Part shown: piece by piece, positions 18,343 through 21,494 of the stretch
Layout: each line of letters begins with the position of its first letter
Numbering within the stretch: the stretch's first letter is position 1
Assembly (NCBI RefSeq): GCF_024220515.1
Contig: NZ_JAMXOT010000326.1
Span: 1-23,946, forward strand
DNA: 23,946 bases
Source: Oscillatoria sp. HE19RPO
GTDB taxonomy: Bacteria; Cyanobacteriota; Cyanobacteriia; Cyanobacteriales; Laspinemataceae
Direction of reading: 5' to 3'
Notes under the pieces: model-generated
The model's database searches: none
The model's input: the letters and a program-made list of their open reading frames with translations, nothing else
Told to the model about the DNA's origin: nothing
Translations under genes and position numbers: made by a program

Positions 18343-19506
18343 ATGAAATGTATGATCGTTGAGTTACTGCTGTTGGGTATTTTATTGCCCGTTGATGTCG
18401 CCCAAGCTGCCGAGGTGAAACCCTTGCCAGCAGAGCAGTCCGGGGACAAGCTGGAATTTTCTGCCGAGGCGGCCAATCTGGATCCTCTATTTTTCCAACC
18501 CATTCAGGGCGATCGCGATCCGGTGTTGTTTACTAAACAGGTTGCCGGGGAGGGGACGGTTTACCCCCAGGACTTACGCATATTTGGAGAATCCCCCCTA
18601 AATGTAGAGGCGATTCGCGAATCGCCTCTACATTTAGGGTTGAATGTTACAGATGGCGTAAATCCTGACCCTCAAGGTGAGATTGCCCAAGGGGAACCCG
18701 CTACAGCACCGGAGGGAACCGCCCCCCGCCAAGGGACTCCCTTACATCGCGAGATTCCCGGGGAACAACCCTTCATTCCCCAACGCATCCCCTTTCGCCC
18801 GCGCACGGATGTTACCACTCAAAGCAAACCCTATTTGGCTTCTCCGGGGATTACGGTGATGACCCCCTCGGGTTATGGTGCCGGTTGGGGAAGTGCGGGA
18901 TTTGGGGTGGGTTTACAGGAACGAACTCGGTTTACGGATAGCAGTGATGGGGTTGCCGGATTCGGCATCGGGTTTGGCAATCCTCGGGAAAATATTGGCT
19001 TAACCGTTGGTGTGACGGTGACGGATTTATGGGGCGATGCCTTTGAGGATGGCAGTGTGAGTTTAAAATTACATCGGCAATTGCCGAACGATTTTGGCAT
19101 TGCGGCAGGGGTGCAGGGAGCGCTCACTTGGGGAGAAACCGATGGCGGAACCTCTGGGTATGGTGTGGTCACAAAACGGTTTGTTTTGGATGACCCCGAG
19201 AACCTTTGGAGCCAAGTGTATGTGACCCTGGGGGTCGGAGGTGGACAGTATCGCTCTGAGTCGGATATTGAGGCGGGAGAGGGGACTGTCGGACTGTTTG
19301 GTTCGGTGGCATTACGGGTTGCACCTCCCGTCAGTGCGATCGCCGAATGGACGGGTCAAGACCTCACTTTGGGGGTCTCCGTGGTGCCGTTCCGGAATAT
19401 TCCTTTGGTGATTTCTCCCGCGATTACGGACATTACCGGCAGCGCTGGAGATGGAACAAGGTTTATTCTCGGGATTGGTTATGGGTTTACGTTTGATCGG
19501 TTCTAG
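18343..19506 (+). CDS. Secreted protein with Pro-rich N-terminal region and Gly-rich C-terminal domain, putative outer-membrane beta-barrel
   Basis: Signal peptide MKCMIVELLLLGILLPVDVAQAAEV. Alternating hydrophobic, Gly-rich strands (GFGVGL, GFGIGFG, IGLTVGVTVTD, VYVTLGVGGG, FILGIGYGFTFDRF). C-terminal Phe, typical of the OMP beta-signal. Confidence 0.55.
   Translation: MKCMIVELLLLGILLPVDVAQAAEVKPLPAEQSGDKLEFSAEAANLDPLFFQPIQGDRDPVLFTKQVAGEGTVYPQDLRIFGESPLNVEAIRESPLHLGLNVTDGVNPDPQGEIAQGEPATAPEGTAPRQGTPLHREIPGEQPFIPQRIPFRPRTDVTTQSKPYLASPGITVMTPSGYGAGWGSAGFGVGLQERTRFTDSSDGVAGFGIGFGNPRENIGLTVGVTVTDLWGDAFEDGSVSLKLHRQLPNDFGIAAGVQGALTWGETDGGTSGYGVVTKRFVLDDPENLWSQVYVTLGVGGGQYRSESDIEAGEGTVGLFGSVALRVAPPVSAIAEWTGQDLTLGVSVVPFRNIPLVISPAITDITGSAGDGTRFILGIGYGFTFDRF
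18598..18637. repeat. Perfect 40-bp palindrome CTAAATGTAGAGGCGATTCGCGAATCGCCTCTACATTTAG embedded in-frame inside the CDS (encodes LNVEAIRESPLHLG)
   Basis: Its own reverse complement. The same 38-bp core recurs intergenically at 21681..21730. Confidence 0.7.
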
Positions 19507-19535
19507 GACGGGTTTTTTATAGAAGGATTCTCACA

Positions 19536-21494
19536 ATGAAACTGTTGAAGGGATGGATGAAATTGCTTTTGGCTATGACATTGGTGGCGATCGCTGCGAC
19601 TCCTGCCATCACCCAGACGGGAAACCAATCCGATGTCACGGGACCCCTAATAGATCCGCCAACGATCGCACCCACGGGAGACATCACCCCTTTACCTACT
19701 CCCACGGACACTCCCACAGATACTCCCACAGATACTCCCACAGACACTCCCACAGATACTCCCACAGACACTCCCACAGACACTCCCACAGATACTCCCA
19801 CAGACACTCCCACAGATACTCCCACAGATACTCCCACAGATATCCCACCTGGGGATACCCCTGTAATCCCTGTGGACAGTCCAGGGGAAGTGCCGACACC
19901 GATTCCGGTTCAAACTCTTGAACCGATTAACATTCAGCAGCCCGAAACCGCTCCTCCGGTTGTCATCCCTGAGAATCCCCAGGTTCCCGTTGAAGAGGAA
20001 ATTCCTCCTCCGGTGAGCGAAAATAATCCCGAACCAGAGGGCACAACGGAAAGTGCTAATCCCATAGAGGGTCAGATTCTCGAAGGTGCTGACAGCACAA
20101 CGGGAGAAGCACAGCCTTTGAGTACGCTTTCTGAGCAAGAAATCGATCGCCCGGGTTATGAAACTCAGTTAGCAGTTGCTGATATTGGGGTGGCGGTTCA
20201 AATGTTGGAAGAATATCAGGCAATGGAGTTTAGCAATTACTTAGAAGTAGAGTTATTTGGGGAAACCGCAACTCCCGATGAGATTGCTCAAACCTTGTAT
20301 GATTTGTGGCAAGCGACGGGTAACAAGAGTGCATTTATTTATGTCTCAGCCTTAGCGGATCAATTAGAACTGGTGATGATTTTCCCCCATAATTTTCGAG
20401 TATCCGGGGGCAGTTCTGACTTAGTGGCTTCGACAAATTTAGCCCAAGGACTGATTGAGAGAACCACTGATGTAGCCGTTCGCGAAACCGTGCCTAATGT
20501 CTCTCGGGAACAGCTTATAGAACAGGTGCAAAACTTGCGATCGGAACTGACTAATCCCAGACGGATTAACAGTCGGAGTTACTTACGCAGCGCCCAAGCA
20601 CTCTATCAGTCTCTGATTGCTCCAATGGAAGCACAACTCGAAGCCAATGGGATTGAAACCTTAGTCTTTTCGATGGATTCTGGGTTGCGAACTCTTCCCC
20701 TGGTGGCATTGCATGATGGGGAACAGTTTTTATTGGAAAAATATGCTGTTGCTTTAGTCCCCAGCTTTGGCTTAACCGATGTCACCTATTCCGATATCCG
20801 CAACCGAAAAGTGTTAGCGATGGGTTCTGCTATTTTTGATGACCTCAGTCCTCTCCCGGCAGTGCCAACCGAATTGCAAAATATTGTCAGCAGTTTTGGG
20901 CGTGGAAATATGTTTTTGAATGAACAATTTACCGCCCAGAATTTCCGAAAAACTAACCAAGAAAACAGATATGGAATTATCCATCTGGCAACCCATGCGG
21001 AATTTCAAGGGGGAAATTTGGATAACTCTTATATCAAGTTTTTTGATGGTCGAGTCGGACTGAACCAGTTTCGAGAGTTAGCCACGGAACTGGGGTGGAA
21101 TACCTCGGACAATCCTCCCATTGAACTATTAACCCTTAGTGCCTGTCGGACTGCCGTGGGAGATACAGAAGCTGAGTTAGGATTTGCCGGTTTAGCGGTA
21201 CTTTCTGGGGCGAAGGCATCCTTAGCTAGTTTCTGGTATGTCAGCGATGCAGGAACTCTGGGATTAATGAGTGAATTTTATTCCAAATTAGGGGAAAAAC
21301 CACTGAAAGCTGAAGCGTTACGGCAAACTCAACTGGCCCTATTAAGGGGAGAGGTTCGTATAGAAAATGGGATGTTATTGCTCTCGAATGGCACAACGGT
21401 TCCCTTACCACCGGAATTAGTGGCCCAAGGAAATATGACCCTATCTCACCCTTATTTTTGGTCGGCGTTTACGGTGATTGGAAATTGGAATTAA
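19536..21494 (+). CDS. Secreted CHAT-domain protein (caspase-like protease fold) with TDTP-repeat linker
   Basis: Signal peptide MKLLKGWMKLLLAMTLVAIAATPAITQ. 12x TDTP linker. The C-terminal CHAT domain carries the caspase-like His/Cys dyad (GIIHLATHAEF ... LLTLSACRTAVG). Confidence 0.85.
   Translation: MKLLKGWMKLLLAMTLVAIAATPAITQTGNQSDVTGPLIDPPTIAPTGDITPLPTPTDTPTDTPTDTPTDTPTDTPTDTPTDTPTDTPTDTPTDTPTDTPTDIPPGDTPVIPVDSPGEVPTPIPVQTLEPINIQQPETAPPVVIPENPQVPVEEEIPPPVSENNPEPEGTTESANPIEGQILEGADSTTGEAQPLSTLSEQEIDRPGYETQLAVADIGVAVQMLEEYQAMEFSNYLEVELFGETATPDEIAQTLYDLWQATGNKSAFIYVSALADQLELVMIFPHNFRVSGGSSDLVASTNLAQGLIERTTDVAVRETVPNVSREQLIEQVQNLRSELTNPRRINSRSYLRSAQALYQSLIAPMEAQLEANGIETLVFSMDSGLRTLPLVALHDGEQFLLEKYAVALVPSFGLTDVTYSDIRNRKVLAMGSAIFDDLSPLPAVPTELQNIVSSFGRGNMFLNEQFTAQNFRKTNQENRYGIIHLATHAEFQGGNLDNSYIKFFDGRVGLNQFRELATELGWNTSDNPPIELLTLSACRTAVGDTEAELGFAGLAVLSGAKASLASFWYVSDAGTLGLMSEFYSKLGEKPLKAEALRQTQLALLRGEVRIENGMLLLSNGTTVPLPPELVAQGNMTLSHPYFWSAFTVIGNWN
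19698..19841 (+). repeat. 12-bp tandem repeat ACTCCCACAGA(T/C) x12 encoding the (TDTP)n linker
   Basis: Direct reading. Variation is only at wobble positions. Confidence 0.8.

Follow-up and report, generated by a model that had tools for sequence, protein, structure and literature searches.

The gene pair considered here lies in a window of 23,946 nucleotides (the whole stretch of DNA that was analysed), with all features of the pair on the + strand. Gene 1 (18343-19506) encodes a 387-aa outer-membrane (OM) protein composed of a predicted signal peptide, a variable Pro-rich periplasmic region, a conserved pre-barrel segment and a 12-stranded beta-barrel, and gene 2 (19536-21494) encodes a 652-aa exported CHAT (caspase-fold) cysteine protease. 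Both open reading frames (ORFs) have the positions and lengths given in the original prediction, as does the 29-bp spacer, within which a ribosome-binding site for gene 2, GAAGGA (19522-19527), can be read from the sequence about 8 nt 5' of the ATG. A terminator scan detected no terminator between the two genes. The strong intrinsic terminator proposed for 21495-21527 proved real on folding and occupies 21495-21526, where it closes the two-gene unit; it consists of a perfect 10-bp stem (CCGGATTAGG/CCTAATCCGG), a 7-nt loop and a T-run, folds at -19 kcal/mol (z -3.8) and is equalled by none of 200 shuffled sequences. The consensus promoter/terminator scan missed this element, probably because extension of the stem consumes part of the T-run, and detected no promoter upstream of the pair. 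Genes 1 and 2 probably make up one transcription unit for a proposed dedicated envelope pair. Its neighbours are MVP and ureC; the vault protein (MVP) was considered as a part of the module and rejected, as it adjoins the pair only in nine Laspinema-clade loci. No CRISPR or CBASS genes were found in the window.

The product of gene 1 begins with a predicted Sec signal peptide (18343-18408), read as MKCMIVELLLLGILLPVDVAQA followed by AEV, of which residues 3-14 are modelled as a helix. This hydrophobic leader, ending in AQA before AE, is also present in orthologues (as judged by eye), and the signal peptides of both proteins were assessed by eye and by hydrophobicity. The composition anticipated for the two halves of the protein was confirmed: residues 24-183 contain 13.8% Pro, and residues 184-387 contain 17.6% Gly and terminate in ...GYGFTFDRF, a C-terminal beta-signal with an aromatic end for which the family consensus is ...GYxFSF. 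Within the variable N-terminal region, a palindromic repeat element of ~100 nt (18568-18667) forms an in-frame insertion that adds 36 aa. It comprises inverted repeat I5 and repeats D8/I4, has a second copy at 21671-21730, is lacking in the orthologues of O. acuminata and Laspinema (a gap opposite P0004 in barrel alignment A1) and has no copy in any of the loci retrieved. The conserved pre-barrel segment (residues 130-183; 18730-18891) has six invariant positions in A1 and follows the pattern ...PLHRxxPGEQPFxPQRIPxRP...PYxASPxITxxxPSGYGAxWGSAG. Presumed to be periplasmic or lumenal and modelled with pLDDT <50, it recurs after the SLH domains of the relative P0247. The model places no helix anywhere from residue 15 to residue 183.

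Residues 184-387 (18892-19503) constitute the Phe-terminated barrel domain. The proposal of an OM barrel was borne out by structure prediction, in which this C-terminal half closes into an antiparallel barrel of 12 strands, an even number, modelled with moderate confidence (pLDDT about 75-89; overall pTM 0.53). Invariant residues lie mostly on the predicted extracellular side rather than in periplasmic turns, and they include T362, D363 and T365 within loop 11, predicted to be extracellular, whose invariant T-D-I-T-G (19426-19440) resembles the tag of the cargo described below. Searching the barrel profile against PDB sequences returned nothing useful, and the family has neither a Pfam match nor an OprB match. 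In its relatives, two or three N-terminal SLH domains precede the C-terminal barrel; the N-terminal extension, which in these proteins carries the SLH cell-wall-binding domains, is expected to be periplasmic, as are both barrel termini.

The CHAT protein likewise starts with a predicted Sec signal peptide (residues 1-26; 19536-19613) of conserved length and hydrophobic core; the peak 10-aa Kyte-Doolittle hydrophobicity ahead of the tag has a median of 2.87 in the orthologues and is at least 1.5 in 62/63. The mature N-terminus is formed by the tag, QTGNQSDVTGPLIDP (19614-19658), which orthologues conserve at a constant distance from Met1, with the family consensus Q-[ST]-G-N-[QM]-S-D-[IV]-T-G-P-[ND]-P-x-E. 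It is succeeded by a linker (residues 42-200; 19659-20135) that is acidic, Pro/Thr-rich (23% P, 22% T, zero K or R) and, from its composition and pLDDT <50, disordered; in the CHAT orthologues it can be as short as 8 aa or as long as 979 aa. The linker had been described as (TDTP)12, which is essentially right: a 12-nt tandem repeat of 12.8 copies (19697-19848) encodes 11 exact TDTP units and one TDIP. A PADLOC match to REase_II falls in this low-complexity stretch and was dismissed as spurious.

The conserved globular C-terminal 452 aa (20136-21491) comprise a helical/pseudo-caspase N-lobe (residues 201-350) and the CHAT catalytic domain (351-650). The latter matches almost the entire PF12770 profile (positions 2-289 of 289) at E 2.7e-62, scoring 211.3 bits where the curated cut-off is 24, and the protein has the separase/Csx29-type fold. 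Pfam finds the CHAT domain alone. The His/Cys dyad is intact as claimed, with HLATHAEF and LSACRT both present and H483, H487 and C537 invariant in an alignment (A2) of 40 orthologues. His487 (codon 20994-20996) is the probable catalytic His, His483 being invariant too, and Cys537 (codon 21144-21146), the sole Cys of the protein, is assigned as the catalytic Cys. Comparison of the CHAT protein with PDB sequences gave low-complexity linker matches only, and NCBIfam, PADLOC and PHROGs provided no informative matches. Some CHAT orthologues are annotated as 'filamentous hemagglutinin outer membrane protein'.

A TpsA-like gene had also been reported in the window. A TPS-domain gene is indeed present, though broken into two separate ORFs (872-1300 and 1316-2383). 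Since it is disrupted, adjoins a DDE transposase and lies 16 kb from the barrel/CHAT pair, nothing visible connects it with these two genes, and, lacking a TpsB partner as well, it was rejected as a component of the same system.

The pairing of barrel and CHAT genes is kept in 62/65 loci, far beyond chance, and extends across orders at 47-57% barrel identity; no orthologues in PCC 7120- or 6803-type strains occurred among the best matches. The tag is found in 63/65 CHAT orthologues, is frequently tandemly repeated, and has related forms on non-CHAT proteins encoded downstream of distant barrels. In a census based on a broad S-D-x-T-G pattern with a background control, 47 of 61 ORFs downstream of distant barrel subfamilies (77%, versus 2% background) carried the tag, and 14 had no recognisable one. 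Two narrower detectors were rejected because they pick up too few of the divergent tags of these subfamilies: a strict N[QM]SD 4-mer (26/72) and an HMM for which CHAT-type tags were the sole training set (26/68). The window has the same arrangement, with the barrel gene (18343-19506) followed directly, in the same orientation, by a gene for a protein with a predicted signal peptide and S-D-x-T-G, and the tag-like pattern has only two matches in its six-frame translation. At the level of sequence, the tag goes with the barrel family whatever the cargo. These patterns bear on the notion of an ordinary operon without specific coupling, in which a small porin-like channel and a secreted protease would be co-transcribed and the motif would be a lineage-specific feature of the signal-peptidase region. 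Such an arrangement, already disfavoured, is highly improbable: the pairing lasts across orders despite the divergence of the barrels, the tag often stands in tandem repeats, and its occurrence on unrelated cargo beside distant barrels is something that a signal-peptidase context cannot explain.

Gene adjacency and a shared motif could also have a common third factor as their cause. The tag might be read by a chaperone, by an enzyme that modifies it or by a machinery of the N-glycosylation type that recognises its N-x-S/T sequon, with the barrel merely co-expressed, for instance as a porin or a substrate of the protease. Most tag variants keep N-x-S/T (NQS, NMS, NLS, NAS, NVS and NYT), and the coexistence of TDITG in the barrel's own loop 11 with the tag on the cargo means that one factor could recognise both proteins; in Pleurocapsales-type loci, moreover, a third secreted protein of 173 aa is encoded just upstream. 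Nevertheless, a third factor of this kind is improbable, as tags without Asn exist (SYSDITG, SFSDITG and QGDITG), no third gene is shared by all loci (the strongest candidate occurs in 39/83 and is missing from this window), and the barrel is the only constant neighbour of the tagged genes.

The reading favoured here, to which a probability of roughly 55% is assigned, is that of an envelope pair in which the tag couples the Sec-exported CHAT protease to its cognate barrel for surface delivery or tethering. The original prediction had envisaged a dedicated export or anchoring partner for an extracellular or periplasmic caspase-like protease, a view supported by the conserved pairing and by the tracking of the barrel family by the tag. 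Gene 1 would supply a 12-stranded OM barrel with its N-terminal extension in the periplasm, and gene 2 would supply a Sec-exported CHAT cysteine protease with an intact dyad. The mature CHAT chain would present, in order, a tag of 10-15 residues (QxGNQSD[IV]TGP), a flexible acidic Pro/Thr/Glu spacer and the catalytic domain, and the tag would act as an address that docks in or on the cognate barrel. Most likely, the disordered N-terminus would thread through the barrel, and the protease would be delivered to or tethered at the cell surface, in a manner that may be likened to a split inverse autotransporter or to the N-terminal targeting of the curli/Fap type. What we infer here is that tag and barrel are in physical contact, which way the protease is transported, where it ends up and what it cleaves. 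Among 150 representatives, in which the barrel is always C-terminal, there is no barrel-cargo or barrel-CHAT fusion to prove a translocator-passenger relation, and this counts against the favoured reading, as do the moderate confidence of the barrel model and the 14 distant downstream ORFs with no recognisable tag. A 12-stranded monomeric pore is also narrow, so that a 450-aa domain could pass only if unfolded, and we know of no energy source for such passage.

Periplasmic anchoring would require no energy source. The tag would then plug the barrel or bind to it, in the lumen or on the side facing the periplasm, and the CHAT protease would hang by its linker from the inner face of the OM. Its targets would be proteins of the periplasm or the envelope, or proteins associated with peptidoglycan, and one conceivable role is that of a site-1-type protease in signalling or quality control. 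The expected periplasmic position of both barrel termini and of the SLH-bearing extension of the relatives is consistent with this arrangement, the short linkers of some orthologues (8-40 aa) agree with a protease kept close to the barrel, and a documented precedent exists in DdvA, whose CHAT domain is periplasmic (PMC11506125). However, acidic stalks rich in Pro and Thr, and linkers as long as 979 aa, are features expected rather of proteins displayed at the cell surface, the invariant residues of the barrel face mostly the extracellular side, and a soluble periplasmic protease has no evident need of a dedicated, co-evolving barrel; anchoring at the inner face is considered rather unlikely.

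Surface delivery or tethering by a cognate barrel has partial parallels among known systems. Two-partner secretion (type Vb) follows a common logic, that is, one dedicated OM barrel and a cargo with an N-terminal recognition element, but TpsB is of the Omp85 type, having 16 strands and POTRA domains, and TpsA has a TPS domain of ~250 aa, whereas the barrel here has 12 strands without POTRA and the cargo has a CHAT match alone. In inverse autotransporters (type Ve, intimin/invasin), the passenger is C-terminal to the barrel in one polypeptide and consists of Ig/lectin repeats; here two polypeptides, each with its own predicted signal peptide, are involved, the cargo is a protease, and there is no sequence similarity, Pfam match or fusion. 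The barrel neither belongs by sequence to the classical autotransporter beta-domain (type Va) nor has an N-terminally fused passenger. FapF, the functional-amyloid exporter of Pseudomonas, has an N-terminal coiled coil, a plug helix and a fapA-F operon; here neither coiled coil nor plug helix is predicted ahead of the barrel, the neighbouring genes are not fap genes, and there is no Pfam match. In curli secretion (CsgG/CsgA-N22, type VIII), CsgG is a 36-stranded nonamer, unlike the 12-stranded barrel of this locus, which has no csg context; the cargo of Fap and curli is an amyloid subunit rather than a large folded enzyme. Slam (type XI) combines a 14-stranded DUF560 barrel with periplasmic TPRs, in contrast to the 12 strands and missing Pfam match here. 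The type IX system (T9SS), with its gingipains and a PorU sortase held by PorV/PorQ barrels, uses a 14-stranded FadL-type PorV and C-terminal sorting domains in Bacteroidota, whereas the tag here is N-terminal and cyanobacterial, and neither homology nor gene context is shared. Cyanobacterial SLH-OprB porins and OmpM-type tethers have the same overall design as the SLH-bearing relatives, yet the present barrel is smaller and different, has no SLH domain in the window protein and is paired with a tagged downstream gene. As for the protease, TPR-CHAT enzymes (Csx29/Craspase, separase, SAVED-CHAT and DdvA) differ in that no TPR, SAVED or transmembrane anti-sigma module is present here and the CHAT protein has instead a predicted Sec signal peptide, a tag and a disordered stalk. 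Neither a defence-system model match (PADLOC) nor a defence neighbourhood among the window genes links it to anti-phage CHAT effectors such as Craspase and SAVED-CHAT.

Little is known of protein traffic across or onto the cyanobacterial OM beyond TolC-type, pilus-related and two-partner routes. Literature searches returned nothing relevant on CHAT with the outer membrane, signal peptides or two-partner secretion, on SLH with a 12-stranded barrel, or on the tag motif. The presence of the tag both on the CHAT protease and on unrelated proteins beside barrel relatives suggests an undescribed barrel-plus-tag export or anchoring system at the OM. More tentatively, and at less than even odds, small 12-stranded barrels, some of them SLH-tethered to the cell wall, may each export or hold a cognate S-D-x-T-G-tagged cargo, with one widespread branch placing a CHAT protease on the surface of filamentous and baeocyte-forming cyanobacteria. 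If true, this compact module would be a new and easily testable OM route in cyanobacteria, would offer cyanobacterial biotechnology a transferable targeting peptide with which to secrete proteins or display them on the surface, and would give a testable annotation to >1000 'hypothetical' barrel clusters and their neighbours. In multicellular cyanobacteria, a caspase-fold protease whose dyad is intact would then be located beyond the cytoplasm, and proteolysis outside the cell or in the periplasm could influence communication between cells, the remodelling of sheath or septum, or cell death.

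The barrel gene (18343-19506, forward strand) encodes a predicted outer-membrane protein of 387 aa and is followed on the same strand by a gene for a 652-aa predicted exported CHAT cysteine protease (19536-21494), the coordinates and lengths of both ORFs matching the original prediction exactly. The two genes form an operon, with a 29-bp intergenic spacer that carries GAAGGA about 8 nt 5' of the CHAT-gene ATG; a consensus scan found no terminator-like site between them. An intrinsic terminator had been placed after the CHAT gene, and stem, loop, T-run and folding energy agree with it: immediately 3' of the stop codon, a perfect 10-bp stem (CCGGATTAGG/CCTAATCCGG) with a 7-nt loop and a T-run folds at -19 kcal/mol (z = -3.8; 0 of 200 shuffles fold equally well). 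This hairpin is not picked up by the consensus terminator scan, probably because stem extension consumes part of the T-run. A small palindromic repeat (AATTGTAGGGTGGGCAATGCCCACC) occurs as a pair on either side of the two-gene unit, at 18187-18242 and 21601-21663, and the window contains no copies beyond these four.

The source organism is close to Laspinema and Oscillatoria acuminata (80-97% identity), and the gene order Major Vault Protein (MVP)-barrel-CHAT-ureC is common to the window and these relatives. The MVP homologue (15333-17978, reverse strand; 881 aa, with Vault repeats at 2e-67 and the MVP shoulder at 2.5e-55) is transcribed divergently from the barrel gene, an adjacency kept only in nine Laspinema-clade loci; full-length bacterial MVP is unusual. 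Adjoining it is a XisH/XisI gene pair (14470-15215, forward strand; PF08814 3.4e-50, PF08869 1.2e-37). The TpsA-like gene noted earlier does supply a TPS domain, split over two ORFs rather than intact (profile positions 1-65 in 872-1300 and 73-251 in 1316-2383); it adjoins a DDE transposase ORF (343-948) and is probably a disrupted gene, and no TpsB occurs within the window. Dense tandem and inverted repeats lie 3' of ureC (23599-23946; a 65-nt unit three times, a 26-nt unit five times) and run past the window end, with related inverted copies at 11632-12010.

The pairing of barrel and CHAT genes, proposed from this one stretch, is conserved in other genomes. A pattern scan with one genome per species yielded 80 loci with barrel homologues, a sampling biased toward conserved barrels; they are essentially all cyanobacterial, with Oscillatoriales, Nostocales, Pleurocapsales, Spirulina, Prochloron and Stenomitos among them. 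Within this pattern-sampled set, 65 loci extend 1.8 kb or more past the barrel gene, and 62 of these have a CHAT orthologue directly 3' on the same strand, at a median spacer of 30 bp and with 44-97% identity across the whole 452-aa C-terminal region. Barrel and CHAT-domain pairwise divergences are correlated (Pearson r = 0.91), which shows co-inheritance and does not by itself show physical interaction. No further gene is conserved throughout the 83 loci compared, and a model that brings in a third factor is less likely. A secreted protein of ~173 aa, absent from the window, stands 5' of the barrel in 39 of the 83 loci, mostly of Pleurocapsales type, and may serve that lineage as a third component; it has no Pfam match, ends in ...WWPW and is encoded on the same strand 50-700 bp upstream (locus L020, 5219-5740; also, for example, L064, L039 and L021). 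Locus L070 carries, besides the downstream orthologue, a second CHAT paralogue (4379-5740; 38% identity) immediately 5' of its barrel gene. A cyanobacterial barrel-CHAT pair is also borne by contig JAAUUT010000051.1 (L062), which is assigned to 'Candidatus Gracilibacteria' and probably mis-binned; its CHAT gene, found as two tblastn segments, appears frameshifted.

The 387-aa protein is predicted with moderate confidence to form an outer-membrane barrel, and its family is unannotated. It has no Pfam or NCBIfam match, a scan of all 44 members of the family alignment with a permissive cut-off gave no consistent family, and searching PDB sequences with a profile gave no hits. More than 570 close homologues are every one cyanobacterial and annotated 'hypothetical', and conservation is restricted to residues ~130-387, with the consensus C-terminus ...GYxFSF. 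The Pro-rich and Gly-rich halves described originally correspond to 13.8% Pro (residues 24-183) and 17.6% Gly (184-387), with a terminal Phe. An AlphaFold model built on the family alignment leaves residues 14-182 disordered and folds residues 184-383 into a barrel of 12 beta-strands (pLDDT about 75-89), as had been expected of the C-terminal half. An exhaustive profile search, clustered at 50% identity, returned 1,118 clusters; the barrel domain is C-terminal in all cases and preceded by extensions of up to ~600 aa. Two or three SLH domains lie N-terminal of the barrel in 7 of 10 long members checked; as SLH domains bind cell-wall polymers, the N-terminal extension is placed in the periplasm. 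With this orientation assumed, invariant residues occupy 16 of 49 positions in extracellular-side loops versus 1 of 28 in periplasmic turns (Fisher p = 0.003). Two copies of a palindromic repeat element, with the core TAAATGTAGAGGCGATTCGCGAATCGCCTCTACATTTA, lie inside the barrel gene (18568-18667) and 3' of the CHAT gene (21671-21730); the former copy is in-frame, adding 36 aa (…YPQDLRIFGESPLNVEAIRESPLHLGLNVTDGVNPD…) missing from the O. acuminata and Laspinema orthologues, and no exact copies of the element occur in the loci fetched from other genomes.

The 652-aa protein is, as judged from its sequence, an exported CHAT protease with a predicted signal peptide and a modular N-terminus. Its CHAT domain is a genuine member of that family (Pfam, 211 bits, residues 351-650), and the His/Cys dyad reported as intact is so, H483, H487 and C537 being invariant in 40 orthologues. 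C537 is the sole cysteine of the window protein, and 45 of 65 orthologues have a single Cys in the catalytic region. In the structural model, residues 201-652 are confident (pLDDT mostly >90) and residues 21-200 disordered. The linker, originally read as (TDTP)12, comprises 11 exact TDTP and one TDIP (a 12-nt repeat in 12.8 copies) and contains 23% Pro, 22% Thr, 19% Asp+Glu and no Lys or Arg; its length among orthologues ranges from 8 to 979 aa.

The tag is a short conserved mature N-terminus of the CHAT protein (19614-19658). Aligned orthologue N-termini consist of a constant-length leader followed at once by Q-[ST]-G-N-[QM]-S-D-[IV]-T-G-P-[ND]-P-x-E, with the motif Gly at residue 29 in most and the tag core in 63 of 65. 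The leaders are predicted from sequence and hydrophobicity to be of Sec type (median of the maximum 10-residue Kyte-Doolittle score 2.87 for the hydrophobic segment before the tag). After P0247 (locus L083), an SLH-bearing barrel relative, the next gene is still a CHAT orthologue, and its product has this leader and tag. Downstream of distant barrel subfamilies the genes encode small unrelated proteins (136-204 aa), and four of five sampled have a tag-like start after the signal peptide (AQTNQSDNTGT, IPGNQSDITGP, AQSNQSDIGGT and AQNGNQSDITGP). Independent data came from 79 metagenome loci retrieved with a distant-subfamily profile, where an S-D-x-T-G-type motif was sought in the first 90 residues of ORFs starting within 300 bp 3' of the barrel. 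It is present in 47 of 61 unique downstream ORFs; among the remaining ORFs of 100 aa or more in these loci, a background that includes non-genes, the count is 8 of 380 (Fisher p about 3e-42), and five of those eight themselves combine a signal peptide with the tag at another position in the locus. The tag frequently occurs in tandem copies (NQSDVTGPNLSDVTGPNLSDVTGPN). Barrel and tag are constant while the cargo, the tagged downstream protein, varies in its domain, and the tag follows the barrel family. No other evidence argues as strongly for a functional coupling of barrel and downstream protein by way of the tag, and a model with no coupling is less likely. The pattern [ST]D[IVTN][TS]G has only two matches in all six frames of the window, TDITG in the barrel's invariant loop 11 (19426-19440) and SDVTG in the cargo tag (19629-19643), a resemblance that mimicry, a shared ligand or chance could explain.

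The non-CHAT cargo of distant barrel subfamilies constitutes a family of its own, with a signal peptide, a tag (often SDITGTNIWNNTAPIF), a variable linker and a helical domain of ~80 aa that has two Cys, a PRRFAR-like motif and a C-terminal Trp (L087, 7520-7987; L088, 3845-4255; L099, L105, L157 and others); it has no Pfam match. A second conserved secreted protein of about 220-250 aa, with the motif ...F(D/G)xxGIQF(D/S)xDTxVEFEF ... DDFLVRAGGHLACP, is encoded two genes 3' of distant barrels (L087, 8125-8775; L088, 4288-5001; also L089, L132, L136, L157 and L160). At locus L084 (160-2567), a COP23 family protein and a Trypsin_2-TPR serine protease, another protease adjoining the barrel family, lie on the same strand 5' of an SLH-barrel gene.

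It is proposed that the tag would dock in or on its cognate barrel and that the cargo would then thread the barrel, leading to export or surface tethering. Such a system would resemble a split inverse autotransporter, and its N-terminal targeting of cargo would resemble curli/Fap. The main rival holds that the protease stays periplasmic, hung from the barrel, which makes an energy source unnecessary and has a precedent in DdvA. Threading, with export or surface tethering, is preferred for four reasons: the nearest structural matches are 12-stranded barrels that conduct proteins; the parts follow one another as they do in intimin (cell-wall-binding domain, barrel, pore segment, stalk, functional domain); the long stalks are acidic and rich in Pro and Thr, and their length varies extremely; and the conserved barrel residues lie on the outer side.

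The pair lacks one or more of the features that define each of the known systems compared, namely classical and inverse autotransporters, FapF, TpsB/TpsA, Slam and CHAT effectors of the defence type. Neither the barrel family nor the tag nor the barrel-CHAT protease pairing appears to have been described: literature searches, including motif strings, returned nothing relevant on any of the three in the papers covered, an earlier description elsewhere being possible, and no orthologues in standard model strains are among the best matches. Type V and type VIII secretion already use the logic of a dedicated barrel with an N-terminally addressed cargo, which the pair would share with them. The chance that experiments would show the pair to be a distinct system for secretion or anchoring at the outer membrane is put at about one in three.
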